This document shows, in pieces, positions 5,831 through 32,000 of a stretch of DNA of 32,000 nt. Under the pieces are notes generated by a model, which made no database searches, had not been told where the DNA came from, and worked only from the letters and a program-made list of their open reading frames with translations. The stretch comes from Nitrosomonas europaea (GTDB lineage Bacteria; Pseudomonadota; Gammaproteobacteria; Burkholderiales; Nitrosomonadaceae). The stretch is from assembly GCF_900167395.1 (NCBI RefSeq), contig NZ_FUWK01000010.1:1-32000 (forward strand), read 5' to 3'. Numbering within the stretch: position 1 is the first letter of the stretch; each line of letters starts with the position of its first letter. The position numbers were made by a program, and so were the translations under genes.

Positions 5831-6086
5831 TTACTGTACTTCGCACCGAAGGTCGATGACCGGCTGTAACCGTGATGCTCCATGTTCAGAAAAGCGCGGT
5901 TCTGCTGATATCCCCATGTATAATTGGGCCGTTTGCGGGTTATAAGTGGCTTTCTCATTTAGTCTGTGGCAGCTTCTTTTACCCGTTCATCATGTGGCTG
6001 TTAAACCAGTCCTGTCTTTGTCCGATGGAACTACTCGTACCGAGAGTGATTCTTTAACTACTACAAAAAACTTCAGAAAGAAACTG

Positions 6087-6680
6087 ATGGCTATTCGTTC
6101 AATCAGATCACTGTTGTGCAGCCTGTTCGCAGTTTTATCGTTGCTGATACCTTTTGGCGCAATTTCAGCGGAAAAGACCACGGTCATCCCGGAGTCTCTG
6201 AAAATCCTTGGCTGGGTAGAGTTTACCCGTCTGGAGCCCTGGGGAATCAAGACGCCTGCCCGGATCGATACCGGCGCCAATACTTCTTCCATGAGTGCTC
6301 GTGATATCAATGTATTCAAGAGAAATGGCAAGACATGGGTCAGGTTTACTTTTGACTTCAAGAAGGGTACGGCGGAGCGTTCCATCGAGATCGAGCGTCC
6401 GCTGGTGCGTATGGTTAAAATCAAGCAGCATGATGGTCCCTCGCAGGAGCGCCCGGTGATCTCCATGGAGATTTGTCTGGCTGATGAAATCCGGGAGGCC
6501 GAATTCGATCTGATCGACCGGCGTGCTTTGAATTACCCGGTACTGCTCGGGCGCAAGGCGCTGGCCGGATATGTGGTAGTCGATCCTGCACGTGCCTATC
6601 TCACCAAGGCAGTGTGTGGCCATACCAAAAAGAAAAAAAAGGGCAGTGAACCAGCTGATCCCGGGCAGCAGCACGAATGA
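6087..6680 (+). CDS. Secreted DUF785 / 'ATP-dependent zinc protease' (retropepsin-like, RimB-type) protein
   Basis: 197 aa counted from the internal ATG. It has a signal peptide (MAIRSIRSLLCSLFAVLSLLIPFGAISA) and the motifs GWVEFTRL...ARIDTGANTSSMSA and ...NYPVLLGRKAL typical of the family. The stop overlaps the next start (ATGA). Confidence 0.75.
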   Translation: MAIRSIRSLLCSLFAVLSLLIPFGAISAEKTTVIPESLKILGWVEFTRLEPWGIKTPARIDTGANTSSMSARDINVFKRNGKTWVRFTFDFKKGTAERSIEIERPLVRMVKIKQHDGPSQERPVISMEICLADEIREAEFDLIDRRALNYPVLLGRKALAGYVVVDPARAYLTKAVCGHTKKKKKGSEPADPGQQHE

Positions 6681-8209
6681 GAAAACTGCATCTGTATCTG
6701 CTGGCATTCATACTGTGTCTTGCGGGATTGGGGCTGGCTTATTACAAAGCTGCGGTAATCGGCCTGCCTTTGACTGCCTCTGAAGAGGCGCAGGTATGGA
6801 ATATCGAGGCCCGTATCAGTTTTCGTGCCAAACCGGACAGTGCAATCAAGGTAACCCTGCCGCTGCCTTTCAATCCTGCCGGTTATTCCATCCTCGATGA
6901 GGATTTCGTCAGTGCAGATTACGGACTGGCAATCGAACAGGATAACACTGGCCGTGTTGCGCGCTGGGCCAAGCGAAGGGCGCAGGGTAAACAGTTACTG
7001 TTTTACCGGGCCGTATTGTTCGAAAACGAGGAAGTTGCACCCAAATCGGATGCCGCACCGGTTTACCCGAAACCACCCGAGTACCCAGAGAATCTGGCAC
7101 CGGTGATTCAGGGAGTGCTGGACAAGGCGCGCCAGCAGTCAGCCGATACCATTTCCTTTACACAGCGGGTGATTGAACAATTGAATGCGGCAGCATCGAT
7201 ACCGGAGCTGAAATTGCTGGTGAAGCATGTCAGCCGTACGCGTAATCTGGCTAAAACCCTGAGCTGGGTGCTGGCCGGTGCCCGTATTCCATCCCGTGTC
7301 ATTCGGGGATTACGCTTGCAGGATGACAAGGACTACGCGGATCTGGAACATTTTCTGCAGGTTTATGATGGTGAGCAGTGGCGCACCCTGAATATCAAAG
7401 ATGGCCAGGAGGGCCTGCCGTCGAATTTCATCATCTGGCAGATCGATGATGACCGTTCCTTCTCGATTGAGGGGGCTTCCGAATCCGGAATCCAGTATTC
7501 AGTCGCCAGAACCTTACAGGAAACCGTCAACATTGCCGGGTTCCGTTCGGCGGAGAAAGGCTCCCATCTGATGGATTTTTCGCTGTATTCCTTACCGGTG
7601 CATACCCAGAACGTGTACAAGGTGTTGCTGATGGTGCCGCTGGGGGCGCTGGTCGTCGTGTTCATGCGTAACATCATCGGAATCCGTACGTTTGGTACAT
7701 TCATGCCCATTCTGATCGCACTGGCTTTCCGTGAAACAGAATTGTTCTGGGGATTGATTCTGTTCAGCCTGATCGTGGGGCTCGGGCTGCTGTTGCGCGC
7801 TTATGTCGAACAGCTGAAGCTGTTGCTGGTTCCCCGCCTGGCGGCGGTGCTGACCATGGTTGTCCTGCTGATGGCGGGGGTCAGCGTCATCATGCACAAG
7901 CTCGGGTTCGAAATGGGGTTGTCCGTGGCCCTGTTTCCGATGGTGATCATGACGATGACGATCGAGCGCATGTCGCTGACCTGGGAAGAGGCCGGACCGG
8001 CGGAGGCATTCAAGCAGGTGTCGGGCAGTTTGCTGGTGGCAGTGATCGGGTACCTGGCCATGAATATCAGCGAGTTCCAGTATATGTTTTTCGTATTTCC
8101 TGAACTGTTACTGGTGTTGCTGGCTGTGATTCTGCTGCTGGGCCGCTACTCCGGCTACCGGCTGATGGAGCTCTGGCGTTTCCGTGCGTTCGCACGGAAC
8201 AAGCCGTAA
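6677..8209 (+). CDS. Inactive transglutaminase-like domain fused to a 7TM domain (UUP1-type membrane protein)
   Basis: 510 aa. An N-terminal TM helix is followed by an extracytoplasmic domain of about 300 aa and a hydrophobic block of about 7 helices (LMVPLGALVVVFMRNIIGIRTFGTFMPILIALAF...). It sits between the DUF785 and ATP-grasp genes, as in the known conserved cassette. Confidence 0.7.
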   Translation: MRKLHLYLLAFILCLAGLGLAYYKAAVIGLPLTASEEAQVWNIEARISFRAKPDSAIKVTLPLPFNPAGYSILDEDFVSADYGLAIEQDNTGRVARWAKRRAQGKQLLFYRAVLFENEEVAPKSDAAPVYPKPPEYPENLAPVIQGVLDKARQQSADTISFTQRVIEQLNAAASIPELKLLVKHVSRTRNLAKTLSWVLAGARIPSRVIRGLRLQDDKDYADLEHFLQVYDGEQWRTLNIKDGQEGLPSNFIIWQIDDDRSFSIEGASESGIQYSVARTLQETVNIAGFRSAEKGSHLMDFSLYSLPVHTQNVYKVLLMVPLGALVVVFMRNIIGIRTFGTFMPILIALAFRETELFWGLILFSLIVGLGLLLRAYVEQLKLLLVPRLAAVLTMVVLLMAGVSVIMHKLGFEMGLSVALFPMVIMTMTIERMSLTWEEAGPAEAFKQVSGSLLVAVIGYLAMNISEFQYMFFVFPELLLVLLAVILLLGRYSGYRLMELWRFRAFARNKP

Positions 8210-8213
8210 TACC

Positions 8214-9164
8214 ATGTTCGGGTTTCTGGAGAAACTCAGGCAGAGCGGCGTCGTCGGTATGAATCAGCGCAATGCTGATTTCATTCTGCGTTACAACAAG
8301 CGCTCGCTTTATCCGCTGGTGGACGACAAACTGCGAACCAAATACCTGGCAACTGCATCCGGTATTGCGGTGCCCGAACTGTATGGTGTCATCGAAATCC
8401 AGCACGATGTCGCCAGTTTTCCAGATATCGTCAAGGATCACGAGGATTTCGTGATCAAACCGGCACATGGTTCAGGAGGAAACGGTATCTGTGTCATTAC
8501 CGGACGTCTCAACAACCGTTATCGACAGAGCAATGGCGATCTGCTGACCGAGGAAGACATCGAATATCACGTCTCGAACATACTCAGTGGCCTCTACAGC
8601 CTGGGTGGACAGCCTGATCAGGCACTGATCGAATATCGGGTCAAATTCGATCCGCTGTTCGAAACGGTTTCCTACCGCGGCGTACCGGATATTCGTACCA
8701 TCGTGTTCAGAGGGATTCCGGTGGCCTGCATGGTGCGCCTGCCAACTCGTATGTCGGATGGTAAAGCCAATCTTCATCAAGGTGCCGTGGGAGCGGGTAT
8801 CGATCTGATGACCGGTCGCACTACCCATGCCATCTGGCAGAATTATCCGATTGAACAGCATCCGGATACCGGTGCTACCATCAGCGGGCTCGCAATTCCT
8901 CACTGGTATAAATTGCTGACACTGGCAGCACAGTGCCACGATCTGGTCGGACTGGGGTATCTGGGCGTGGATGTCGTGCTCGACCGGGAACTGGGCCCGC
9001 TGGTACTGGAGCTCAATGCACGTCCGGGTCTTTCCATTCAGATAGCCAACCGCAGGGGCATGAGCCGTTTGCTGGAGAAAATCGCCAAACTGGAAGAAAT
9101 CCCTGCTGCGGCAGCAGATCGTGCCACATTGGGACAGGAATTATTTCTGGAAAATCAGACCTGA
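8214..9164 (+). CDS. Alpha-L-glutamate ligase-like (RimK-related) ATP-grasp protein
   Basis: 316 aa starting at MFGFLEKLRQSGVVGMNQRNADFILRYNKRSLYPLVDDKLRTK.... It contains ATP-grasp core motifs (FVIKPAHGSGGNGI, LGYLGVDVVLD...GPLVLELNARPGLSIQIAN). The start lies 5 nt after the upstream stop. Confidence 0.8.
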   Translation: MFGFLEKLRQSGVVGMNQRNADFILRYNKRSLYPLVDDKLRTKYLATASGIAVPELYGVIEIQHDVASFPDIVKDHEDFVIKPAHGSGGNGICVITGRLNNRYRQSNGDLLTEEDIEYHVSNILSGLYSLGGQPDQALIEYRVKFDPLFETVSYRGVPDIRTIVFRGIPVACMVRLPTRMSDGKANLHQGAVGAGIDLMTGRTTHAIWQNYPIEQHPDTGATISGLAIPHWYKLLTLAAQCHDLVGLGYLGVDVVLDRELGPLVLELNARPGLSIQIANRRGMSRLLEKIAKLEEIPAAAADRATLGQELFLENQT

Positions 9165-9338: not shown

Positions 9339-11426
9339 TTAGCGTTGACTGGCCGCCTGTACGGCAGTCAAGGCAATGGTATAAACAATATCTTCCACCG
9401 ATGCGCCGCGTGACAGATCATTCACCGGCTTACGCAGGCCTTGCAACATGGGGCCGACACTGACTACGTTGGCGCTGCGCTGTACGGCTTTGTAAGTGGT
9501 ATTGCCGGTGTTGAGATCCGGAAAGATAAACACGGTAGCGCGCCCTGCTACCGGGCTGCCAGGTGCTTTTTGCCGGCCCACGCTGGCAATCGCAGCGGCA
9601 TCGTATTGCAGAGGGCCGTCGATCAGCAGATCGGGACGTGCCAAACGGGCAAGTCGAGTGGCTTCGCGTACTTTTTCCACTTCTTGCCCGCTGCCGGAAT
9701 CACCGGTGGAATAACTCAACATGGCTACGCGTGGCTCGATACCCAGTGCCTGTGCCGACGCGGCACTTTGCAGTGCGATATCGGCCAGTTCTTCAGCCGT
9801 AGGATTAGGATTGACCGCACAATCTCCATACACGACGACTTGTTCTGGCAGCAGCATAAAGAAGACAGAGGAGACAAGTTTAAAACCCGGTGCTGTTTTG
9901 ATCAGTTGCAAAGCGGGGCGAATGGTATTGGCGGTGGTATTGATTGCGCCGGAGACGAGGCCATCGACTTCACCCGTCGCCAGCATCATGGTGCCCAGCA
10001 CGACATTGTCCTCCAGTTGCGCCAGCGCCATGGGTTCATTTAATCCTTTGTGCTTGCGTAACTCCACCATAGCCGCCACATAATTTCGGCGCACTTTTTC
10101 CGGATCAATCATTTCAAGCCCTTCGGGCAGGGTAATGCCACGTGCGCTGGCCACCGCTTTTACTGCATCAGGTTTTGCCAGCAACACGCAACGGGCAATG
10201 CCACGTTCCTGGCAAATGGTTGCCGCTTGTATGGTGCGGGGTTCGTACCCTTCCGGTAACACGATACGGCAATCAGCCTCTTGCGCCCGCTTGACCAGGC
10301 GATAGCGGAAGGCGGGGGGAGAAAGGCGTTGTTCCTGTGGCTCACCACAGCGCTTAACCAATAATTCCTGACGAATATGATTCGCCACAAAGTTGGTGAT
10401 GCGCTCAGCACGCTCGTGGTCATCCAGCGGAATCTCCCGATTCATGCGATGCAGGTTGGCGGCGGTATCGTATGAATTGGTCGTGACGGTACAAACTGGT
10501 AATCCTTTTGTCAGTGCACCTTTGCACAATTCCAGCACGCGCGGATCTGGCGGAAAATCACTGCACAGCAGTAACCCCGCCAGTGGTACACCATTCAGTA
10601 CGGCAAGGCTGGCGGCCATGACAATATCGTCCCGGTCACCAGGTGTTACCACCAGAACTCCGGGACGTAACAATGTCACTGAATTGGGGGCGGCACTGGC
10701 AAACAGCACGATATCCTGTACACGGCGTTTTTCACTATCCCCCGCGTTTACGATCTGAGCTTGCAGCTGTGTGACAACGTCTGCCATGCGAGGAGCATTC
10801 AAGGAATCCTCCCAGGGAATACAACCCAGAATCTGAAAGCTGGATTGATGGAACAGGGTGGAATGGTTTTTTAGCTGTTCAAAAAGATCATCAGAATGAT
10901 CGGTGCGAATTTTATTGAGGATTACGCCCAATAGACGAGGATTCTGAGCACCACCAAAAAATTGAGCCTGAATTTCAATACGATCTGTAATTGCCTGCAG
11001 TGCATCATCTTCGGCAGATGAAACGAGGATGATATCAGCATCAAGGCTGCTGGCCAGCCTGGTATTCACGCGTGAGGCATAGCTGACATGGCGTGTAGGT
11101 ACCATACCTTCTACCACCATCACATCATAACCTTCAGAGGCTTGCTTAAATCGCCGGACGATATCTTCCATCAAGTCGTCAATCTGACCTTCACCCAGCA
11201 GATGTTCAACTGTAGCTAACGGAAGCGGAGCGGGTGGTGCCAGGCCCAACGTTCGCGAGATCAGTTCAGTGGAATATTCAAGCTTGGAATTACCGGGATG
11301 TTGCTGAGCGACAGGTTTATAAAAACCCGCTTTAAGGCCGCCATATTCGAGCGCCCGCACCAATCCTAAACTGGTTGAAGTGAGTCCGACACCAAAGCCG
11401 GTAGAGGTAACAAAGAAAGTATGCAT
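9339..11426 (-). CDS. pta: Phosphate acetyltransferase (long form with N-terminal P-loop/DRTGG region)
   Basis: 695 aa. The N-terminus TSTGFGVGLTSTSLGLVRALEYGGLKAGFYKPVAQ parallels E. coli Pta. The C-terminal PTA_PTB domain shows ...VDGLVSGAINTTANTIRPALQLIKT...DCAVNPNPTAEELADIA.... Confidence 0.92.
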   Translation of the reverse strand: MHTFFVTSTGFGVGLTSTSLGLVRALEYGGLKAGFYKPVAQQHPGNSKLEYSTELISRTLGLAPPAPLPLATVEHLLGEGQIDDLMEDIVRRFKQASEGYDVMVVEGMVPTRHVSYASRVNTRLASSLDADIILVSSAEDDALQAITDRIEIQAQFFGGAQNPRLLGVILNKIRTDHSDDLFEQLKNHSTLFHQSSFQILGCIPWEDSLNAPRMADVVTQLQAQIVNAGDSEKRRVQDIVLFASAAPNSVTLLRPGVLVVTPGDRDDIVMAASLAVLNGVPLAGLLLCSDFPPDPRVLELCKGALTKGLPVCTVTTNSYDTAANLHRMNREIPLDDHERAERITNFVANHIRQELLVKRCGEPQEQRLSPPAFRYRLVKRAQEADCRIVLPEGYEPRTIQAATICQERGIARCVLLAKPDAVKAVASARGITLPEGLEMIDPEKVRRNYVAAMVELRKHKGLNEPMALAQLEDNVVLGTMMLATGEVDGLVSGAINTTANTIRPALQLIKTAPGFKLVSSVFFMLLPEQVVVYGDCAVNPNPTAEELADIALQSAASAQALGIEPRVAMLSYSTGDSGSGQEVEKVREATRLARLARPDLLIDGPLQYDAAAIASVGRQKAPGSPVAGRATVFIFPDLNTGNTTYKAVQRSANVVSVGPMLQGLRKPVNDLSRGASVEDIVYTIALTAVQAASQR

Positions 11427-16093: not shown

Positions 16094-17326
16094 ATGGGTT
16101 TTCAACACGGATTGAGTGGATTAAAGGCAGCTTCAGCCAAGCTGGATGTCACGGGTAACAATATCGCCAATGCCAACACGGTTGGATTCAAGCAATCACA
16201 AGCGCAGTTTGCTGATGTTTACGCCAATGCGCTGGGAGGCGGCAGGAATCAGATCGGGATTGGTACTCAACTGGCAGCTGTCGCGCAGGAATTTAATCAG
16301 GGGAATGTGACACCTACCAATAACCCGCTGGATGTCGCAATTACCGGCAATGGTTTTTTTCGGATGGATAACAACGGTTCGATCAGTTTTACCCGTAACG
16401 GCCAGTTTCATCTGGATAAGGACGGGTTTCTGGTCAATGCGAGCAATTACAACGTTACTGGTTTCGGAGCGGATGCATCCGGCCAGATTATCCCCAATAT
16501 CCCGGTCAATCTGCGGTTGCCTACAGCAGATATGACGCCTAATCCGACTACCAGTTTCATGACAGGGGTCAATCTGGATGCGCGTGCTGATGTAGTGACT
16601 GATCCTTTTAATGTAGCTAATCCAGATACCTATACCCATTCTACTTCGGGAGAAATTTTTGACAGTTTTGGTAATTCCCATATATTAAATTTATATTTCC
16701 AGAAAACAGCTGCATCCACTTGGGGCGTATATACAGCCGTGGATGGTACAGTAGTAGATCCCTCTACTGGATTATCTGGTACGGATAGCCCAATCACTTT
16801 GAGCTTTAATCCATCCGGGATCATGACATCAACCGGGTCAAGTACGATTAATGTGGCTGCTTCTGTACTGGGTGCGGGCGTTTCACCGCTTGCTTTTGAG
16901 CTTGATTTAACCCGTTCCACCCAGTTTGGCAGCAAATTCGGGGTGAATGTGATGAGCCAGGATGGATTTGCTTCGGGTCGCCTGGCCGGGTACAGCATTT
17001 CTGATGATGGCCAGATCAGAGCCAGTTACTCCAATAACGTCACGCGCACAGTCGGTCAACTTGTACTGGCAGGTTTTTCCAATCCTAACGGTCTCAAGCC
17101 GCTGGGAAGCAATCAGTGGGGTGAGACGGCTGAATCCGGATTGCCGTTGGTGGGGACTCCGGAGACGGGTGTGCTGGGCTCACTGCAATCTTCAGCAGTG
17201 GAAGAATCCAATGTTGATCTGACGACCGAGCTGGTCACCCTGATCATGACGCAGCGGGTCTATCAGGCCAATGCCAAGACCATCGAGACACAGGATGCAG
17301 TAATGCAGACCATCATGAATATCTGA
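16094..17326 (+). CDS. flgE: Flagellar hook protein FlgE
   Basis: 410 aa. GNNIANANTVGFKQS at the N-terminus, FTRNGQF, and the C-terminal ESNVDLTTELVTLIMTQRVYQANAK. Confidence 0.92.
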   Translation: MGFQHGLSGLKAASAKLDVTGNNIANANTVGFKQSQAQFADVYANALGGGRNQIGIGTQLAAVAQEFNQGNVTPTNNPLDVAITGNGFFRMDNNGSISFTRNGQFHLDKDGFLVNASNYNVTGFGADASGQIIPNIPVNLRLPTADMTPNPTTSFMTGVNLDARADVVTDPFNVANPDTYTHSTSGEIFDSFGNSHILNLYFQKTAASTWGVYTAVDGTVVDPSTGLSGTDSPITLSFNPSGIMTSTGSSTINVAASVLGAGVSPLAFELDLTRSTQFGSKFGVNVMSQDGFASGRLAGYSISDDGQIRASYSNNVTRTVGQLVLAGFSNPNGLKPLGSNQWGETAESGLPLVGTPETGVLGSLQSSAVEESNVDLTTELVTLIMTQRVYQANAKTIETQDAVMQTIMNI

Positions 17327-23721: not shown

Positions 23722-24621
23722 ATGCGCGTAAGCACCAGCACATTGTACGACCAGGGCACCCGATCCATGCTGCAGCAACAGGATTCGCTATTCAGACTGC
23801 AGCAGCACCTTTCTACCGGAAAACGCATCATGACGCCTTCGGATGATCCGATCGGCGCGGCGCGTGCCCATGAACTGGCGCAGTCGCTTTCATTGAACAC
23901 GCAATATGCTGACAATCGCTACCGGGCGGCCGACAGTCTCCAGCAGGTTGACAGCACGCTCGGCAGCGTTTCCAATCTGATCCAGAGTGTACGCACCATG
24001 GCGGTGGCTGTCGGTAACTCGGCATTTTCCGACAGTGAACGGAAGATGATGGCTGTTGAGCTGCGTGGTCATTTCGATGAATTATTGGGACTGGCAAATA
24101 CCAAGGATGAGCAGGGGAATTATCTGTTCTCCGGTTTTAAGGGAAACACCAGACCGTTCGAACAAACGGCTAATGGCGTGGAATACAAGGGGGATCAGGA
24201 GCAGCGGCTGATACAGGTTTCCAGTTCACGACAGCTGCCGGTCAGTGAAACGGGTGATGCCATTTTTGAGCCAGGGGGCTTGAGTCTATTTCAGACTATC
24301 GAGGATTTTATTGATGAACTGGAAACCCCCGGTGGTGCTGCTCTGGGTGGTGCAGTGAGTACCGCTTTGCAGGATCTCGATATTGCGCTGGATAATGTGC
24401 TGGCTAAACGGGCAGCGGTCGGATCACGGCTGCAGGAAGTCGATGCGCTGCAGCAGATCGGTGAGGACACGGCGATTCAGTACCAGCAGTCGCTCTCACG
24501 TCTGCAGGATCTGGATTTTGCACAGGCCATATCCGACATGACACGCCAGCAGGCACTGCTCGAAGCGGCGCAGAAAACCTTTACCCGCGTATCAGGATTG
24601 TCGCTGTTCAATCTTATTTGA
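23722..24621 (+). CDS. flgL: Flagellar hook-filament junction protein 3 FlgL
   Basis: 299 aa. MRVSTSTLYDQG... with a flagellin-like N-terminus (TGKRIMTPSDDPIGAARA) and C-terminus (DLDFAQAISDMTRQQALLEAAQKTF). Confidence 0.88.
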   Translation: MRVSTSTLYDQGTRSMLQQQDSLFRLQQHLSTGKRIMTPSDDPIGAARAHELAQSLSLNTQYADNRYRAADSLQQVDSTLGSVSNLIQSVRTMAVAVGNSAFSDSERKMMAVELRGHFDELLGLANTKDEQGNYLFSGFKGNTRPFEQTANGVEYKGDQEQRLIQVSSSRQLPVSETGDAIFEPGGLSLFQTIEDFIDELETPGGAALGGAVSTALQDLDIALDNVLAKRAAVGSRLQEVDALQQIGEDTAIQYQQSLSRLQDLDFAQAISDMTRQQALLEAAQKTFTRVSGLSLFNLI

Positions 24622-24664
24622 TTTCTGTCAATCGCCCGGTTTCAGTAAATTCCCGGCATATCCG

Positions 24665-24689
24665 GTAAACTGGCGACAGTTTACTTTTT
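24665..24689 (+). terminator. Rho-independent terminator after flgL
   Basis: GTAAACTG-GCGA-CAGTTTAC forms a perfect 8-bp stem with a tetraloop, followed by TTTTT. It lies 44 nt after the flgL stop. Confidence 0.5.
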
Positions 24690-24698
24690 GAGCATGAT

Positions 24699-25343
24699 AT
24701 GGACCGGGAAGATTTTTTTCTGAAGATCGCGGAACTCCATCTCAAGCGTGTGGAAATTCTGCAAACGGTTGAGTGGAGAATTACGTTCAGCCTCTGGACA
24801 TTCGTTGCGGGTGTCGCAATGGTGAGCCTGGCCAATGCAGACAAAATGAAGCAGGCGGCTGTCGCCATGGGAGGCATCCTTGGCCCCGTTGTCATACTGT
24901 CCCTGATGGGGGGCATTTATGTGTGGCTTTGGTATTTATACCTCTATAAATTCTGCAAGAAGAATTACAACAGTCTCGTCACGGAGCGTAACCGCTACCA
25001 GCGTATGCAGAATGAAGCAATAAAGCTCGTTCTGAAAGGTAAATCTGCAGATTTTCTGATCGAAGCCGGGGCTGAAGATAAACGGGTGCCTGAATCAGAT
25101 TTCAGTGAGCCTTCTTTCAAACAACTGTCTGGTGATGATTTCAGGAAGTCAGGTGTATGGGAGTTCAAGCGAGGTATTACAGCAGCGCTGATGTTTTTTT
25201 CATGGCTGCTTGTCCTGATGATAGTGGTTCCTTCAGCCAGTAAACACCTGAATGATTCCGTAGTGGCCACTGGTAAGCCAGCCGGGGTGGAGGTGGAGAG
25301 TTCCGGCCGCAATCTCAGGCGGGAGGCCGACCAGCACTTCTGA
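24699..25343 (+). CDS. Hypothetical membrane protein (about 3 predicted TM helices), no recognisable family
   Basis: 214-aa ORF with hydrophobic segments WRITFSLWTFVAGVAMVSLA, ILGPVVILSLMGGIYVWLWYLYLY and ITAALMFFSWLLVLMIVV. There is no clear RBS, and the ORF starts 10 nt after the terminator T-tract. Confidence 0.4.
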   Translation: MDREDFFLKIAELHLKRVEILQTVEWRITFSLWTFVAGVAMVSLANADKMKQAAVAMGGILGPVVILSLMGGIYVWLWYLYLYKFCKKNYNSLVTERNRYQRMQNEAIKLVLKGKSADFLIEAGAEDKRVPESDFSEPSFKQLSGDDFRKSGVWEFKRGITAALMFFSWLLVLMIVVPSASKHLNDSVVATGKPAGVEVESSGRNLRREADQHF

Positions 25344-25482
25344 TTTCAGTGTTTGCAGGCACATGTAAACGCCTCATCTCGCACAACTGAACTGTGCCTG
25401 TTTTCCCAACAGCCTTCCTTGCAGTCTATCGACGTTTCCATATCACATTACCGTAATATCTTTTGATACGTATGCGCGCAGT

Positions 25483-25516
25483 ACTGACTGCCTCGCTGAC
25501 GTTTTTCAGAGGTTCC
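25483..25516. repeat. Solo right half of the 671-821 repeat element
   Basis: ACTGACTGCCTCGCTGACGTTTTTCAGAGGTTCC versus ACTGACTGCCTCGTCGACGTTTTTCAGAGGTTCC at 788-821. Confidence 0.55.
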
Positions 25517-25694
25517 CCAAGTTTTCCTGTAAGTGTTGAATATGGGAAATACACGACTTCTTCACTCTCCTTTTTATATTTGCAGGCTTGTGATTTTCAT
25601 CACATTTTATTTATAGATATTTACTAAAAAATAGTACATATGAATAAAATGTAATGGCAGATATCTTTTTTCAGTTATCGCAAAAGGAGGGCGT

Positions 25695-26351
25695 ATGGGC
25701 ATTCCTTCGGATTTTTCTAATACGGGTCTGACTGGATTCAATGTTTCGTCGACCAAGCTTGTCAAAATAGAGCAGCAGTATAAGGGGGTGAAGGGGAAAA
25801 AATTTATATCTCCCGGAGGTGGAAAGTTTGTTCGCATCGATGATCCCGGAGCTGTCGATTCAAATGGCCTTAGAACGGCTGACGCAAGCAACACTTCAAT
25901 AAGTCTGGAGACAGGAAATACCTGGTTGCCCCGACTTCATGCAGATGGCACTTTGACCTGCGGTGGCAAATGTGCATGGCTGGAATGTACAAATGTAACG
26001 ATCCCCAAGAATAAGCGGTTATGGTTTCGTTATGCATTTTTACGTTTTTCTTCATTGCCCGCCGATTCATTTTCCGTGCTTTTATGTTTCCCAAACGATG
26101 ATACAAGTGTCCCTCCACTGCCTCCTTACTGGATTTGCAGCGTTAAGGAGCTACAGGAGAACAGGGGTAATATCAATCAAACCGACTGGACTGAATGCTT
26201 TGTTGAAATTGATAAGAATGCCGATTTTCATGGGACGCTACGATGGGTTGTGGCAACAGGACATAACCTAGCCGATCAGAATTCGATACCTGACAATACT
26301 CGTTTTACCAGACCTGGCTGTCTGTTGATTGACGCCATTGATATTCGCTAA
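25695..26351 (+). CDS. Hypothetical protein, no recognisable family; likely co-transcribed with the giant multicopper oxidase gene
   Basis: 218-aa ORF with a strong RBS (AAGGAGGG, 5 nt before the ATG). An AT-rich promoter-like region lies upstream. The stop is 14 nt before the next start. No signal peptide is evident. The protein has several Cys and a beta-rich appearance. Confidence 0.55.
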   Translation: MGIPSDFSNTGLTGFNVSSTKLVKIEQQYKGVKGKKFISPGGGKFVRIDDPGAVDSNGLRTADASNTSISLETGNTWLPRLHADGTLTCGGKCAWLECTNVTIPKNKRLWFRYAFLRFSSLPADSFSVLLCFPNDDTSVPPLPPYWICSVKELQENRGNINQTDWTECFVEIDKNADFHGTLRWVVATGHNLADQNSIPDNTRFTRPGCLLIDAIDIR

Positions 26352-26365
26352 CCGAGTGGAGGGCA

Positions 26366-29300
26366 ATGATGAAAAATTTTAATTTCAGCACTGCACTGAT
26401 ATGCCTGGCGGGTATTTTTATATCTGCTTGTAAAGTGACAGATCACAACAGTGCGTTCGGTCCATCAGGAAAGCGGATCGTTCATGCTGATGTTGTGGCA
26501 ATCGACCAGCCGATTTATTACAACCGGTTTGGATCGGTGAATCCATACGGTATGGTTTATGCCCTGAAGCGCGATATAACGGTCGTTAAACAAGGTGAAG
26601 AGTGGCTGCCAGGGTTGTCATGTCCCTCAGAAGTACGTCTGCTTGAAGGTAAAAGACCTCGGCCTTTGGTGTTGCGCGGTAACGCCGGTGATGTACTGGA
26701 GATTACTTTTACCAACAAACTGATGAAAGTGCAGCCGGATATCAGCCGATGTACCTTGATCGATAAACACTCGCCTTATGCGCATCTTGTCGATGCAAAA
26801 GGAAGAATTGACCCGATTGATCCTCCGGAACATGAAGCAGAGCTGCGAACAGATATCGGAGAGACACAGCATCTGCCCCCTGCTGATTGGCCAAAAACAA
26901 GATCGGCCAATCTCGTTATTCCCGGGCTGGTCAGTTTGTCGGGTACTGACCCGAGGTGTAACGGACTGCAATCGATCGATCCCGGTGAATCGGTTACCTG
27001 CCGATGGAAACTTGAAAATGAAGGGACACATTTGTTTTCCAGTCATGGGGCCCCGGCGGGTGGTGAAGGGGATGGTGGCAGTTTGACGCACGGGCTTTTC
27101 GGTGTGGTCATCGTCGAACCCGAAAACAGCAAATGGTACCGGAGCCAGGTAACTGCTTCTGTTCTTGATAAGGTATGGCCGCGCCTTAAAGAGGATGACA
27201 TCGTGCGCAAAGGCAGTTTGCAATACGACGCGTCAGATTCAGAAGGCACACCGTATCTGAATATGCTCAAGCCTGCTGGCAGAGATCAATCCGGCAGTAT
27301 GCGTTATGAATTGATTTATGGTGACCTGAATGCGGTTGTTCGGGAAGATAAACCGGAAAATCCTGATGCACCCGCATTCCGTGAATTTACCGTTGTCTTT
27401 CATGATGAACTCAAAACGTTTTATGCCAATAATTTTCAGGAACTGGCTGTAAGCCGTCAGCTGAGTGGTGTAGGAGATGGTTTTGGTATCAATTATGGTG
27501 CCAGCGGAATGGGATCCATTTTATTGGCAAACCGGAAAGGGATCGGGCCCGCTGCCGGGTGTGCAGAATGTTTTTATGAGGAATTTTTCCTGCAATCGTG
27601 GGCGAATGGAGATCCGGCGCTACTGGAGCATTTTGAAGATGATCCTTCCAACGTAGCGCATTCCTATCTCAATGATCGTGTCAAATTCAGGAACTTGCAT
27701 GCAGGCCCGAAGGAAACCCATGTTTTTCATCTGCATGCGCATCAATGGTTGTCTTCGACTGATAAAAATTCCGGCACCTATCTCGATTCACAGACCATCG
27801 CACCGCATCAGGGGTTTTCCTATAGCATTTATGATGGTGGTTTGTCAGAGTGGGCCGGTAAGGGCGAGAACGTACATCAAACCTTGGGTAGCGGAAACCG
27901 TAACCGTACAGTCGGTGATTCCATCTTTCATTGCCATCTTTATCCACATTTTGCACAGGGTATGTGGGGACTGTGGCGCGTGCATGACGTAATCGAAGAC
28001 GGCACCCGTACATTACCCGACGGACAGCCTGAAGCCCATTTCTACGGCCAGCCCCGGGTGGCTCTATCCATAGAAAAGACAAAAATTGGCGGAAAGCGGC
28101 CAGGAACCGATCCGGTAACGGGTGCTGCAGGTGCTGGTACGCCGGTGCCAGCCATCTTGCCACTGCCTGATCAGGGGCTGCCGCCACTTCCTACTTATGC
28201 ACAGGATCCGCGTGTCGGTCAGTCGGAGCAGTACGCTATGCCGGGTTATCCCTTCTATATTCCAGGAGAGCCAGGGCATAGAGCACCGCAACCACCGCTG
28301 GATTTTGCCAGGGATGAGAATGGTTTGCTGATGCACGGTGGTTTGCCGCGGCACGTAATCAGAAATGGCGAACGCAAGCCTGTTTTTATGTCTGACGATT
28401 TATTGAATCAGTTACCAGCCGATGCTGATGAACGTGCAGCAATGGTATTGCGACAATCACTTGCACTGGGTGATTTTCGTCTGGAGCTGACCCGGGCGGA
28501 TATTGTTTTGCTCGATCATGATGGTGAATCGATCGAGCGTCAGGCGATGGATTTTCATGCCGGGAAGGCTGCCAGAATCCGATTGGCGGATGGTTCGTAT
28601 GTTAATCATGATCCAGATAAATCCGGGTACCCGTCTTTGACACCGGAAGGCCGGCGTGCACGTTTTTATGTGAATGGTGCACCATCTGCACCAGGTGCCC
28701 CGTATGCAGACCCTTGCCACGATCCTGCATTCAAGGGAAACCGGCAATACGAGGTATCTGCAATCGGTCTCGATCTGGTGGTAAACCGGGCAGGCTGGCA
28801 TGATCCTCAGGCGCGCATCAATATGTTGACAAAGGATGCAGAACAGATCGAAGGACAGCGCCGGCATGATATGGAACCTTTCTTTTTCCGCGCGTCATCC
28901 GGTGAGTGCATCGAATTCAAGCATCAAAACAGAACAGAAAAAGAGCTTGAGCTGGATGACTTTCAAGTGGCTACCCCAACCGATACCATCGGCCAGCATA
29001 TTCATCTGGTGAAATTTGATGTTACTTCTTCAGATGGTTCAGGGAATGGGTTTAATTATGAAGATGGCACCTTCTCTCATGGTGCAGTCGAAGAAAGGAT
29101 CCATGCAGCCAGCGGGCTGGCAGTAACCTCTGCCGGGGAACGTAAGCGACTGGCAATTGGTAAGGATTTGGACGGCAAACAGATTGATCGGTATCAGACA
29201 ACCGTTCAACGCTGGTTTGCTGATCCTTTGCTGGCAGTCAACAGCAAAAATGAGGGCCACACCTCCCATGCCATGCATGGTGCTGCTACGCCAGACAGAA

Positions 29301-32000
29301 CCTGTCCGGCTCATGCTGACAAGGAATGCATAGACCGTACTTTACGGACGGTGTTTACTCATGACCATTTTGCACCTTCTTCCATACAGCAGCATGGTTT
29401 TTATTCTGCTTTACTCGTAGAGCCGGCAGGTTCGACATGGTTGAAACCGAATGGAGAAGCTCTTGAAGAGGGTGTAGGTTCAAAAGCGACCATAATTGAA
29501 GCAGTCGACTGGTTGACGCATGAGAATCACCGGGAATATGCACTTGCCGTGGCCGATTTTGCTTTGCTATATGAGCCTGCCTTATATCAGCCCTGGCGGG
29601 ATCATTCCACAGATGGTATGGCCCGGTTACTCCGTGAAACCCAATCCAATGTGCGTAATTCCGCAACAGGAGCCTTATTCCGGGATCTGAAGCGACATGC
29701 TGAACACTGGTGGAAGCAACATGGTAAACCGGTTGATCCGCCCTTTAAACCGGAAGCAATCTCCAAGGATCACCATAATCCTTATCTGGTGAACTATAAG
29801 CATGAACCGATTCCATTGCGTATCGGAAAAATGGAGAAAAAACTGCAAACTCCAGAGGAAACCCACTGTGGTGAGCATGCACAGGAACGTGATTCCAAAG
29901 GGTATTTCAAAAAACGGATGAGTGTTTCTCAACAGCAGGAAGGAAATAACGGTGATATGGCCTATGTTTTTGCTTCGCGTGAACATGGTGACCCTTGTAC
30001 ACCGATTCTGGAAGCTTATGAAGGTGAGAACATACAAATCCGCATGGTTCAGGGAGCCCAGGAGGTACAGCATACCTTTGCAATTGAGGGGTTGTACTGG
30101 CCACGCATAATTGATTATTCAACCAGTCATCAGTTCTCAGAAGAAGTACAAAAAAAACAGGATAACCCGTCAGCACTGGTTTCTGCCCAGGAAATCGGTA
30201 TCTCAGAGCATTTTGAGATGCGGATGCCACCTTTCCAGAATGTTTCGAATGGCGCAAGCGTGAATGATTACCTCTACCATCTTGGTACGGCAGATGCGTT
30301 ATGGAATGGAGCCTGGGGTCTGTTGAGAATACATAACGGGGTATCTGCACCGGATCCAGCAGGATGCCAACCCGATGAGAATCTTGCTGCGGCAGTTGAT
30401 AAATGGTTTGCACGCAGGAATCTGTTTGGAAGGGATGTAGAAGGCGTACCGGTATCATGCAAGAAGCTGGTGGGAAACAGATTGAAGCCACTGCCAGGGC
30501 ATGGAGACGGCCAAATTGTCATAACCAATGAGAAGGAAATATTTGGTGAAGATTCGGCGCCTGATCCTGAAACGGGTAGAGAATTACCGCTTGGGTGCCC
30601 TGGTGGTTCAAGATTGAAGAACTTCAAAGTGGTTGCCACGAGAGTCGATCTGCTTGTTTCTTCTAAAGAGAACAAAATGTTTTACGACAAGGAGAATAAG
30701 CTTTTTGATCCAGATGCCTTGATTCTGCTGACTATGCCGCCGGGGGAGGCAAATATAAGACTGCAGGATGTTAAAAATATATATCAGCAAAAGGCGGATG
30801 CCGGAGTATTGGAACCCTTGGTTTTACGTGCCAACGCCAACGATTGTATAGCACTGGAATTATATAATCTGCTGTTGGCTGAAGGTGAAACGGAGCTGCC
30901 CGACACTGCTGGCGATGCCTTGATGCCGAGAATTGTTCCGCTGAATGTTGATCAGCCGACCGGTTCAGCTGCTGGAGATGTCAAACCATCGACAAAATTA
31001 TCGTTATCGATCCCGTTACTGGCAACCAGAGACCCCGTCTATTTTCGTAACCTGGGTATTGGTATGAACCGCAGTGCAGAGCCTCTGAACAACGGACAGA
31101 AGCGGATTTATACATTTTACGCGGGAAAACTGGAGCTGGAGTCAGAGGCTAAAACCAAAGATGGCCCGGCTTGTGCGGGAGGAGAGTGCAAATTCAAACT
31201 TAACAAGTTGCCCTACGTTTTCGGCACTCTTCCGATCAAGGCCTTTGGTGATGTAATCAACCATGGGGCACATGGCCTGATTGGCACGCTGGTGATAGAA
31301 CCTGAAGGTGCTGTTTATCTTGATCCGGTAACTGAAAAAGAGATTCCAGAGGAAGATCAATGGAAGCTGGGTTCGGAAGCACTGATTAAGTATGAAGATG
31401 AACAGCGCAAGAAAAAGATGTTTCGTGAATTTGTCCTGGCTTACCAGGATGGCCTTAATTGGCACTGGCCATCACCATGGAGCAGGAAAACCGAGCCAGT
31501 TGGGGATTGCCCGATTTGTGATGATTCATATGATCATGGCGAGAAGGGGATCAACTATCGTGCAGCACCTTTCTGGGCAAGGTTACGGCAAGGAATGGAC
31601 AGTAACGGTCGCCGTGTCTTCAACGATATTGGTGCAGGGGCGGATTTAAACCAGGTTCAATTCCCAAAAAACTTTTTACTAAGTTCCTGGGCGGATATTC
31701 CAACCCCGGTTTTTCAGGCAAAAGCGGGGGAAGAAGTACGTTTCCGTGTATCGCAGCCATATGGTCGTGCCCGTCAACGTGCGTTCGTAAGTTTTGGTGC
31801 TGATTATGCAGATATGATGCCCGGATTTGGTTCACCACATTCTGCTTTGATATCTGCTGGCAAGGCGATGACGGCTACTTTATCCGGATCTGCAAAAGAA
31901 GGATGTTATATCTACCGCGATGGCCCGATGCATATGTTTGCAAGTGGCGTATGGGGGCATTTCAGGGTGAGTCCGGCTGATGGTACCACTTTGAAATGCG
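26366..32000 (+). CDS. Giant multicopper-oxidase-like lipoprotein (at least 1878 aa; 3' end beyond the window), three tandem two-cupredoxin units (MnxG/ceruloplasmin-like architecture)
   Basis: Manual translation of frame 2 from the ATG at 26366 (GGAGGG RBS) to nt 31999 finds no stop. The ORF is absent from the supplied track. Lipoprotein signal MMKNFNFSTALICLAGIFISAC. MCO motifs present: HVFHLHAHQW (27719-27748), HCHLYPHFAQGMWGLWRV (27929-), IGQHIHLVKFD (28997-) and FTHDHF (29360-). GLFGVVIVEP, FYSALLVEP and LIGTLVIEP each recur once per unit. Confidence 0.85.
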   Translation, partial: MMKNFNFSTALICLAGIFISACKVTDHNSAFGPSGKRIVHADVVAIDQPIYYNRFGSVNPYGMVYALKRDITVVKQGEEWLPGLSCPSEVRLLEGKRPRPLVLRGNAGDVLEITFTNKLMKVQPDISRCTLIDKHSPYAHLVDAKGRIDPIDPPEHEAELRTDIGETQHLPPADWPKTRSANLVIPGLVSLSGTDPRCNGLQSIDPGESVTCRWKLENEGTHLFSSHGAPAGGEGDGGSLTHGLFGVVIVEPENSKWYRSQVTASVLDKVWPRLKEDDIVRKGSLQYDASDSEGTPYLNMLKPAGRDQSGSMRYELIYGDLNAVVREDKPENPDAPAFREFTVVFHDELKTFYANNFQELAVSRQLSGVGDGFGINYGASGMGSILLANRKGIGPAAGCAECFYEEFFLQSWANGDPALLEHFEDDPSNVAHSYLNDRVKFRNLHAGPKETHVFHLHAHQWLSSTDKNSGTYLDSQTIAPHQGFSYSIYDGGLSEWAGKGENVHQTLGSGNRNRTVGDSIFHCHLYPHFAQGMWGLWRVHDVIEDGTRTLPDGQPEAHFYGQPRVALSIEKTKIGGKRPGTDPVTGAAGAGTPVPAILPLPDQGLPPLPTYAQDPRVGQSEQYAMPGYPFYIPGEPGHRAPQPPLDFARDENGLLMHGGLPRHVIRNGERKPVFMSDDLLNQLPADADERAAMVLRQSLALGDFRLELTRADIVLLDHDGESIERQAMDFHAGKAARIRLADGSYVNHDPDKSGYPSLTPEGRRARFYVNGAPSAPGAPYADPCHDPAFKGNRQYEVSAIGLDLVVNRAGWHDPQARINMLTKDAEQIEGQRRHDMEPFFFRASSGECIEFKHQNRTEKELELDDFQVATPTDTIGQHIHLVKFDVTSSDGSGNGFNYEDGTFSHGAVEERIHAASGLAVTSAGERKRLAIGKDLDGKQIDRYQTTVQRWFADPLLAVNSKNEGHTSHAMHGAATPDRTCPAHADKECIDRTLRTVFTHDHFAPSSIQQHGFYSALLVEPAGSTWLKPNGEALEEGVGSKATIIEAVDWLTHENHREYALAVADFALLYEPALYQPWRDHSTDGMARLLRETQSNVRNSATGALFRDLKRHAEHWWKQHGKPVDPPFKPEAISKDHHNPYLVNYKHEPIPLRIGKMEKKLQTPEETHCGEHAQERDSKGYFKKRMSVSQQQEGNNGDMAYVFASREHGDPCTPILEAYEGENIQIRMVQGAQEVQHTFAIEGLYWPRIIDYSTSHQFSEEVQKKQDNPSALVSAQEIGISEHFEMRMPPFQNVSNGASVNDYLYHLGTADALWNGAWGLLRIHNGVSAPDPAGCQPDENLAAAVDKWFARRNLFGRDVEGVPVSCKKLVGNRLKPLPGHGDGQIVITNEKEIFGEDSAPDPETGRELPLGCPGGSRLKNFKVVATRVDLLVSSKENKMFYDKENKLFDPDALILLTMPPGEANIRLQDVKNIYQQKADAGVLEPLVLRANANDCIALELYNLLLAEGETELPDTAGDALMPRIVPLNVDQPTGSAAGDVKPSTKLSLSIPLLATRDPVYFRNLGIGMNRSAEPLNNGQKRIYTFYAGKLELESEAKTKDGPACAGGECKFKLNKLPYVFGTLPIKAFGDVINHGAHGLIGTLVIEPEGAVYLDPVTEKEIPEEDQWKLGSEALIKYEDEQRKKKMFREFVLAYQDGLNWHWPSPWSRKTEPVGDCPICDDSYDHGEKGINYRAAPFWARLRQGMDSNGRRVFNDIGAGADLNQVQFPKNFLLSSWADIPTPVFQAKAGEEVRFRVSQPYGRARQRAFVSFGADYADMMPGFGSPHSALISAGKAMTATLSGSAKEGCYIYRDGPMHMFASGVWGHFRVSPADGTTLKC

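Follow-up and report, generated by a model that had tools for sequence, protein, structure and literature searches.

NE0315 of Nitrosomonas europaea, a six-cupredoxin multicopper oxidase of the MnxG lineage, and its conserved upstream partner gene

It is known that multicopper oxidases take single electrons from their substrates at a type 1 (T1) copper and reduce O2 to water, a four-electron reaction, at a trinuclear copper cluster. The eukaryotic six-domain ferroxidases (ceruloplasmin, hephaestin, and Fox1) couple metal-cation oxidation to O2 reduction and consist of six cupredoxins derived from a triplicated two-domain unit. In ceruloplasmin, T1 sites are found in domains 2, 4, and 6, and the trinuclear cluster lies between domains 1 and 6. 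Both ceruloplasmin and Fet3p bind their cation substrates with clusters of the His/Glu/Asp type. Among bacteria, MnxG of Bacillus sp. PL-12 (1227 aa; PDB 9bxa), the catalytic subunit of the MnxEFG complex, is a six-cupredoxin enzyme of the spore coat (exosporium). MnxE and MnxF, of about 12 kDa each, are encoded directly upstream of Bacillus mnxG and are needed for an active Mnx enzyme (PMC5622069). The MnxG of Pseudomonas putida GB-1 (PputGB1_2447; NCBIfam NF041487) is a proteobacterial protein of about 1900-1950 aa. MnxG-type oxidases make reactive manganese oxides, which matter for trace-metal and carbon cycling and for manganese removal in drinking-water filters. Nitrifiers are the dominant organisms in these filters and in nearly all cases possess such genes, and several recent studies have raised the question of whether they oxidize manganese themselves. 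According to these reports, MnxG-like genes are present in almost all metagenome-assembled genomes (MAGs) of nitrifiers and in cultured Nitrosomonadaceae, and their function awaits testing (PMC11995701; bioRxiv 10.1101/2024.12.25.630300; PMC12070406). In this study, I analyzed a gene of this family, NE0315 (also called mnxG), which lies at the end of a 32,000-nucleotide stretch of Nitrosomonas europaea (contig NZ_FUWK01000010.1, positions 1 to 32,000; hereafter the window).

NE0315 occupies positions 26366 to 32000 of the forward strand, on which all of its features described below also lie. A first-pass annotation of the window had claimed a stop-free frame of 1878 codons from the ATG at 26366. 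Codon-by-codon translation indeed gives 1878 sense codons and zero stops, an outcome with a chance of about 6e-44 at the regional base composition. Each of the other five frames has 47-134 stops, and the GC content by codon position (0.60/0.43/0.45) is coding-like. The same annotation had described the frame as missing from the list of open reading frames (ORFs). It is true that the frame is absent from the list, in which all ORFs across the region are at most 198 aa long and lie on the opposite strand or in another frame. However, the list by its own description leaves out ORFs running off the end of the source, and the absence is an edge artefact rather than a missed gene because the frame exceeds the window end. 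Extension of the sequence, which had been suggested as a check, located the stop 9 codons past the window, followed by convergent genes. On longer public contigs the full-length product has 1886 or 1887 aa, and the window (1878 of 1887 codons) lacks only the last nine residues, EIPASYEGL.

The translation is identical at 1877 of 1877 residues to CAD84226.1 / Q82XF9, the NE0315 product of N. europaea ATCC 19718, which is named 'multicopper oxidase [Nitrosomonas]' by NCBI and 'Possible multicopper oxidase' by UniProt. The neighboring ORFs of the window are exact matches to NE0313, NE0314, and FlgH of that strain. Thus, the host is an ammonia oxidizer, as had been supposed. NE0315 has been annotated as a 'possible multicopper oxidase' since the 2003 genome, and both the gene and its family assignment are already known. 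The intact 5.6-kb frame is found in many strains and metagenomes (a 75-member cluster at 90% identity).

NE0315 is almost certainly a six-domain multicopper oxidase lipoprotein of the MnxG lineage, with a mass of about 207 kDa. The only real sequence match in the PDB is chain 9bxa_A of Bacillus MnxG (E 5.4e-88), with which HMMER aligns it colinearly in ten stretches spanning MnxG residues 7-1141 and all six domains. The NCBIfam MnxG model NF041487 matches with an E-value of 2.5e-194 (648.1 bits in five stretches). This match is colinear, the best stretch running from residue 793 to 1815 against positions 823-1809 of the 1894 in the model. Two AlphaFold models were built from 46-sequence alignments, one for residues 23-1222 and the other for residues 1180-1878. 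The C-terminal model has a predicted local distance difference test (pLDDT) score of 86.4 and a predicted template modeling (pTM) score of 0.91. The models are rich in beta strands and gave several hundred Foldseek matches at E<=0.001, with cupredoxin proteins leading. For both halves the best match was 9bxa_A (N-terminal, E 1.4e-40 over 1080 columns; C-terminal, E 1.8e-34 over 710 columns). Weaker by more than 20 orders of magnitude, the next matches were to two-domain laccases, ceruloplasmin, copper nitrite reductases (NirK), and factors V/VIII; the TM-scores were 0.13-0.31 for the ceruloplasmin type versus 0.43-0.58 for MnxG. The structure comparison that had been proposed as a check thus gave six cupredoxins, counted from secondary structure and alignment, with MnxG as the best match. 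Together with the internal repeats described below, the PDB, Foldseek, and NCBIfam matches support the earlier view that the protein is of the MnxG and not of the CueO/laccase type.

The six domains are in the same order as in Bacillus MnxG. Domain 1 (residues ~38-259, positions 26477-27142) is a beta-strand block in the AlphaFold model that ends with GLFGVVIVEP; it aligns with MnxG residues 7-158 and includes a sub-threshold Pfam Cu-oxidase_3 match at residues 203-254. Domain 2 (residues ~301-540, positions 27266-27985), the catalytic domain with the predicted T1 copper and half of the cluster ligands, is supported by the model and by a 91-bit alignment to MnxG residues 163-365. It is followed by an insert (residues ~541-790, positions 27986-28735) that was recognized from the alignment gaps against 9bxa and from the model. 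The insert consists of a Pro-rich linker and a small alpha/beta subdomain, is far longer than in Bacillus MnxG, and appears in the model as lower-confidence stretches followed by a folded block at residues 641-745. Domain 3 (residues ~791-1058, positions 28736-29539) ends with GFYSALLVEP, holds the other four cluster His residues, and is supported by the model and by alignments of 78.7 and 13 bits to MnxG residues 428-641. Domain 4 (residues ~1215-1323, positions 30008-30334) ends with GAWGLLRI and has no Cys-type T1 motif; it has a 56-bit alignment to MnxG residues 674-786 and a pLDDT of 86 in the model. Domain 5 (residues ~1416-1652, positions 30611-31321) ends with GLIGTLVIEP and was identified by the model, the Foldseek match to 9bxa_A, and profile homology to modules 1 and 2. 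Domain 6 (residues ~1671-1869, positions 31376-31972) ends with GVWGHFRV and lacks a T1 motif; here the evidence comes from the model, Foldseek, and the profile alignment of modules 2 and 3, which covers both cupredoxins. NE0315 (1886 aa) has large inserts between domains 2 and 3, 3 and 4, and 4 and 5, in contrast to the 1227-aa Bacillus enzyme.

It had been proposed from motifs that the protein contains three repeats of one two-cupredoxin module. Single-sequence BLAST detects weak colinear similarity, and profile-profile comparison of the modules (residues 30-545, 775-1325, and 1400-1878) bears out the repeats. Modules 2 and 3 match with 99.0% probability (E 3.9e-18) over 387 colinear columns spanning both cupredoxins, modules 1 and 3 with 98.8% (E 5.7e-17), and modules 1 and 2 with 77.6% (E 1.9e-5). 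The (I/V)NY linkers (residues 375, 1142, and 1729) and the WGxxR(V/I) ends (residues 534, 1317, and 1863) are where they had been placed. On the other hand, the strict G(L/F)xGxxxVEP motif occurs only once (residue 243), GFYSALLVEP and GLIGTLVIEP being looser versions. The Pfam search that had been recommended fell short: no Cu-oxidase model scored above its threshold on NE0315, with 19.7 bits for Cu-oxidase_3 (cut-off 21) and 10.9 bits for Cu-oxidase_2 (cut-off 20.4). Most homologues likewise have no precomputed Pfam domain. Because this family is too divergent for the models, the shortfall is a matter of model sensitivity and no argument against the fold, on which the ligand motifs, the PDB match, and the structure models agree.

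Where are the copper sites? A motif scan of NE0315 found exactly one HxxHxH, one HCHxxxHxxxxM, and two other HxH motifs. HVFHLH (H452, H455, and H457; positions 27719-27736) would provide a T1 His and two cluster His residues. The second motif, HCHLYPHFAQGM (H522, C523, H524, H528, and M533; positions 27929-27964), would provide the T1 Cys, His, and axial Met as well as two further cluster His residues. HIH (H878 and H880; positions 28997-29005) and HDH (H999 and H1001; positions 29360-29368) correspond to the HxH motifs of a trinuclear cluster. All 12 ligands are invariant among 35 homologues at 47-79% identity. Moreover, each motif has an aligned counterpart in Bacillus MnxG (HVFHYHVH, HCHLYPxFGIGM, HIH, and HDH), matched residue by residue, and that enzyme likewise has a single T1 site and cluster, with HxxHxH and HCHxxxHxxxxM in domain 2 and two HxH motifs in domain 3. 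H528 aligns with MnxG residue 340, which is mutated in PDB 9bxa ('H340A'). Since each motif is single and the ligands are invariant in the homologues, NE0315 is predicted to bind only one T1 copper, held by domain 2, and one trinuclear cluster, located where domains 2 and 3 meet, which together make up a single four-copper unit. In domains 4 and 6, the Cys-His signature is absent; they end in YLYHLG...GAWG and YIYRDG...GVWG, respectively. The six-domain layout had been likened to both ceruloplasmin and MnxG. The likeness to MnxG holds, but the copper layout is not that of ceruloplasmin, as the sole Cys-type T1 motif is in domain 2 and the cluster ligands are in domains 2 and 3. The present analysis reveals no new gene. 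Rather, it narrows the experiment, with a single catalytic center and with C523 and H528 as clear mutation targets.

A 2013 phylogeny of six-domain multicopper proteins placed NE0315 and the P. putida GB-1 MnxG in the same proteobacterial cluster (PMC3600357). Within this lineage, NE0315 is a distant member belonging to a subfamily different from that of the Pseudomonas MnxG, as its score against NF041487 is far below the cut-off.

NE0315 has two adjacent in-frame ATGs at positions 26366 and 26369, and public records use either (1887 or 1886 aa). A Shine-Dalgarno-like GGAGGG (positions 26358-26363) lies 3 nt before the first and 6 nt before the second, a spacing that favors the second. The signal peptide (positions 26366-26431) had been described as a lipoprotein signal with the lipobox ISAC and Cys22. 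The N-terminus, MMKNFNFSTALICLAGIFISA-C22, does contain a classic lipobox (FISA-C22) with Lys at +2, and a twin-arginine motif is absent. Most of the 35 homologues have a comparable lipobox-type Cys at residues 9-37. The rules of lipoprotein sorting by the Lol system are established for Escherichia coli. Because of the lipobox, the Lys at +2, and the lack of a twin-arginine motif, NE0315 is predicted by analogy to be exported by Sec, processed by LspA, and sorted by Lol to the outer membrane.

A plausible working scheme is as follows. NE0315 would be exported through Sec and lipid-anchored at Cys22, probably on the outer membrane. The T1 copper in domain 2 (H452, C523, H528, and the axial M533) would take electrons from the substrate one by one. 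The electrons would then pass via H522-C523-H524 to the trinuclear cluster held by eight His residues of domains 2 and 3, which would reduce O2 to water. The likeliest substrate would be a metal cation, first of all Mn(II)/Mn(III), and the product would be Mn(III) or a Mn oxide at the cell surface. Such Mn oxides could help the cell to handle metals or guard it against reactive oxygen, rather than contribute to energy conservation.

If one substrate has to be named, Mn(II)/Mn(III) is the first choice, because the only characterized relatives, the MnxG proteins of Bacillus and P. putida, are Mn(II) oxidases. Taken as a whole, the view of NE0315 as a MnxG-lineage surface lipoprotein that oxidizes Mn seems on balance probable, while the chance that Mn(II) itself is a real substrate, judged by analogy, falls somewhat short of even. 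Several points weigh against this view. The domain boundaries are approximate, having been read from secondary structure and alignment and not from coordinates, and the N-terminal AlphaFold model has a pLDDT of 73 and a pTM of 0.79 with several low-confidence stretches. The identity to Bacillus MnxG is only 21-22% in structural alignments, and the score of 648 bits against NF041487 compares with an equivalog cut-off of 3100, so that NE0315 is no ortholog of the verified Pseudomonas enzyme. The locus has no MnxE/MnxF counterpart; a profile of the upstream NE0314, searched against all PDB chains at E<=10, gave a chance match to SUS1 alone. Furthermore, Mn(II) oxidation has been shown for no Nitrosomonadaceae according to one report (PMC11995701), and authors in the field warn that homology predicts the substrates of multicopper oxidases poorly (PMC11995701; bioRxiv 10.1101/2024.12.25.630300). 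Finally, the co-regulation of NE0315 with iron-uptake genes reported in PMC11024918 fits a role in Fe or Cu oxidation equally.

With the same architecture, the physiological substrate could be Fe(II) and/or Cu(I). NE0315 would then be a ferroxidase or cuprous oxidase that, in the manner of ceruloplasmin, Fet3p, and CueO, keeps oxidative stress and the metal balance of the envelope under control, and Mn(II) oxidation would be at most a side activity. Transcript data favor this idea: NE0315 (listed as 'mnxG; NE0315') is reported to be down-regulated with the fecARI iron-uptake genes, after ionizing radiation (PMC11024918) and after heavy-metal exposure (Park and Ely 2008, as cited in PMC11024918), and N. 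europaea is unusually iron-demanding (PMC11024918). With Met533 as the axial ligand, the T1 potential would be modest, similar to that of metallo-oxidases. In addition, domain 4 has a cluster of residues that are invariant in the 35 homologues, namely H1207, D1209, E1233, H1236, E1276, E1281, H1282, E1284, and D1310 (residues 1207-1310, positions 29984-30295). By analogy, this cluster resembles the cation-substrate sites of ferroxidases. It points to a cation site as such and does not separate Fe/Cu from Mn. In contrast, the nearest characterized relatives are both Mn oxidases, ceruloplasmin-type structures match far worse than MnxG, and the FTR1-type permease encoded in the window is no neighbor, lying 20 kb off beyond the flagellar operon. 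All in all, Fe(II) or Cu(I) as the physiological substrate is the main rival to Mn, although I regard it as rather unlikely.

Conserved CxxC pairs were also observed in NE0315. CAEC (residues 399-402, positions 27560-27571) lies about 20 residues after the (I/V)NY linker of module 1, and CPIC (residues 1715-1718, positions 31508-31519) about 10 residues before that of module 3. The domain 4 cluster and the CxxC pairs could be cation-binding or disulfide sites.

I found that the gene directly upstream is a conserved partner of the oxidase. NE0314 (positions 25695-26351, forward strand) encodes 218 aa without a signal peptide. It has a strong ribosome-binding site (RBS) of its own, AGGAGG (positions 25685-25690), and its stop codon lies 14 nt before the NE0315 ATG. 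Since the genes 3′ of NE0315, past the window end, are convergent, NE0314 and NE0315 very probably form a co-transcribed two-gene operon. An AT-rich intergenic region of 351 nt upstream of NE0314 (positions 25344-25694) is the likely promoter region of this unit. A sigma-70 consensus scan of positions 24500-26500 found no site (3.1 expected by chance) and located no promoter.

NE0314 has no relative in Pfam, NCBIfam, or the PDB. A word-indexed search of 5.8 billion proteins gave 16 clusters, all from Nitrosomonas and Nitrospirales, and repeating the word-indexed search with a broadened profile brought no additional members with a name or an informative taxonomy. When 1.84 billion representatives were searched exhaustively with a profile, 41 of them proved to belong to the family, mostly with 200-240 aa. 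The motifs of the family are FxRxDDP, DGAWLEC, NDFA, GTLRWVxxNG, and a C-terminal PSCLLIDxI. Is the linkage to the oxidase general? In every sampled locus encoding a family member (the window, L001-L004, L006, and L016-L026), a homologue of the giant oxidase follows on the same strand, 10-100 nt downstream of the gene. Besides the window, 8 other kinds of locus were sampled, among them several metagenomic lineages. This adjacency was found in five loci of other Nitrosomonas species and in three Nitrospirales loci, where the context is unrelated (tyrS upstream and a CBS-domain gene downstream). It was also found for five of five distant members that the profile search had retrieved; their oxidases share 42-67% identity with NE0315. 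The Sphingobium xenophagum plasmid pSH1 has a 223-aa gene of this family that was seen only by the family hidden Markov model (HMM; E 1.5e-36), next to an oxidase 37.5% identical to NE0315. Seven loci with oxidases about 31-44% identical to NE0315 have no NE0314-like ORF at HMM sensitivity.

The gene content around the oxidase varies in a further way. In pSH1 and in a metagenomic locus, L024, the oxidase is followed by a trio encoding a conserved hypothetical protein of about 600 aa, a copper chaperone of the SCO family, and a c-type cytochrome. Plasmids of Paracoccus and Shinella have the downstream trio without an NE0314-like partner, while N. europaea and Nitrospirales have the partner without the trio. 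The trio lies at positions 7534-10426 of L024, 11405-14954 of L026, 11978-15293 of L028, and 12250-15994 of L029, the last having a hypothetical gene in the cytochrome position. Thus, the oxidase operon exists in at least three forms: with the partner only, with the downstream trio only, and with both. Within one part of the MnxG-like family, NE0314 accompanies the oxidase patchily yet in tight linkage.

Bacillus mnxG is preceded by mnxE and mnxF, whereas NE0315 is preceded by a single unrelated gene. Because NE0314 has no export signal while the oxidase is predicted to be Sec-exported, a cytoplasmic role of NE0314 in maturation or export chaperoning, or in regulation, would be likelier than that of a stable periplasmic subunit. 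NE0315 probably needs to be co-expressed with NE0314, and omission of the partner could explain failed expression, as in the case of Bacillus MnxG without MnxE and MnxF. A bolder proposal is that NE0314 and NE0315 constitute a two-component metal oxidase, in which NE0314 would be an obligatory maturation or accessory factor analogous, though unrelated, to MnxE and MnxF. The cassette would have been passed horizontally between ammonia oxidizers and Nitrospirales and would have given nitrifiers Mn(II) oxidation. This proposal is speculative, and I consider it unlikely in its full form; if true, it would help to explain why nitrifiers are associated with the removal of manganese in sand filters.

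It was also assessed how the cassette is distributed. In a neighbor-joining tree of the 35 homologues, Nitrosomonas, the homologue P0007, and the Nitrospira/Nitrospirales homologues P0010 and P0011 form one clade. Nitrospira has at least two MnxG-like lineages; the P0010 type groups with Nitrosomonas, while P0044 (named 'copper oxidase') belongs to a separate clade. A Nitrospira locus of the P0010 type, L017, carries the NE0314 partner. The oxidases of the Nitrosomonas and Nitrospirales groups are 58-64% identical to each other and at most 48% identical to the next relatives. One might suppose from this clade, and from the presence of the partner in unrelated contexts, that the enzyme has a role specific to nitrifiers, such as the oxidation of NH2OH, NO, or an organic or phenolic compound. 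Such a role would explain a cassette common to ammonia oxidizers and Nitrospirales. However, the oxidase family is widely distributed, its more than 3000 members including those of methanotrophs, purple sulfur bacteria, and many Alphaproteobacteria and their plasmids, and the partner also occurs on the Sphingobium plasmid. Furthermore, nitrogen-cycle genes adjoin none of the sampled loci, and N. europaea is already equipped with enzymes dedicated to hydroxylamine and NO. A nitrifier-specific substrate is therefore very improbable.

The two-gene unit of N. europaea is bracketed by a 123-nt direct repeat with 87% identity between the copies, which are 6864 nt apart (positions 9549-9671 and 16413-16535 of locus L010). 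In the window, the first copy is at positions 25243-25365; the second, about 110 nt past the window end, falls within the 3′ end of the ARMT1-like gene, which is convergent. The repeat has the look of a scar left by insertion or recombination of the cassette. In other Nitrosomonas species, the cassette is not next to the flg genes. The nitrifier clade, the bracketing repeat, and the differing genomic contexts indicate that the cassette was acquired by insertion and exchanged among nitrifiers. The same repeat and the differing contexts might be taken as signs that NE0315 is left over from horizontal transfer, decaying or silent and now without function. In contrast, the frame is intact in many strains and metagenomes, the 12 ligands are invariant, and transcript changes have been reported, so that a dead relic is essentially excluded.

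The first-pass annotation had called the physiological role of such an enzyme in an ammonia oxidizer unexplored. This is only partly so, since the literature already reports that nitrifiers have the gene and asks what it does (PMC3600357; PMC11995701; bioRxiv 10.1101/2024.12.25.630300; PMC11024918). The MnxG-like genes of the published Nitrospira, Nitrosomonas, and Nitrospinaceae MAGs belong to the same gene family as NE0315, and one of the loci with an NE0315 homologue, L005, comes from the published nitrifier MAG OFTM190. In their accessible parts, these accounts deal with presence or absence; the domain, ligand, and NE0314 analyses are added here. The conserved NE0314 partner is the one addition beyond published knowledge, as no description of it was found in the literature accessible to this study. 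Since N. europaea is a culturable model ammonia oxidizer with an intact exact copy of the gene, the question can be answered experimentally.

NE0313, upstream of NE0314, was considered as a second partner and rejected. It is found in N. europaea loci only and is absent from the other Nitrosomonas loci, and its C-terminus copies the sequence downstream of the cassette. The ORF (positions 24699-25343) is annotated as a 214-aa 'transmembrane protein', the last 47 residues of which are encoded by the upstream repeat copy, antisense to the 3′ end of the ARMT1-like gene. NE0313 may be a chimeric or spurious ORF made by the insertion. A functional link of the cassette to the adjoining upstream flagellar flg operon was also rejected, as the cassette lies in unrelated contexts in other Nitrosomonas species and in Nitrospirales.

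Elsewhere in the window, positions 3887-5830 encode a 647-aa fusion of a cytochrome c domain and an FTR1-family iron permease. Yeast FTR1 works with a multicopper ferroxidase; a link of NE0315 to this permease is unsupported, as the two are 20 kb apart across unrelated genes. Positions 5946-9164 encode a putative ATP-dependent zinc protease (PF05618), an inactive transglutaminase with seven transmembrane helices (PF14400/PF14402), and an ATP-grasp enzyme associated with sugar transfer (PF14397). This trio looks like a conserved system.

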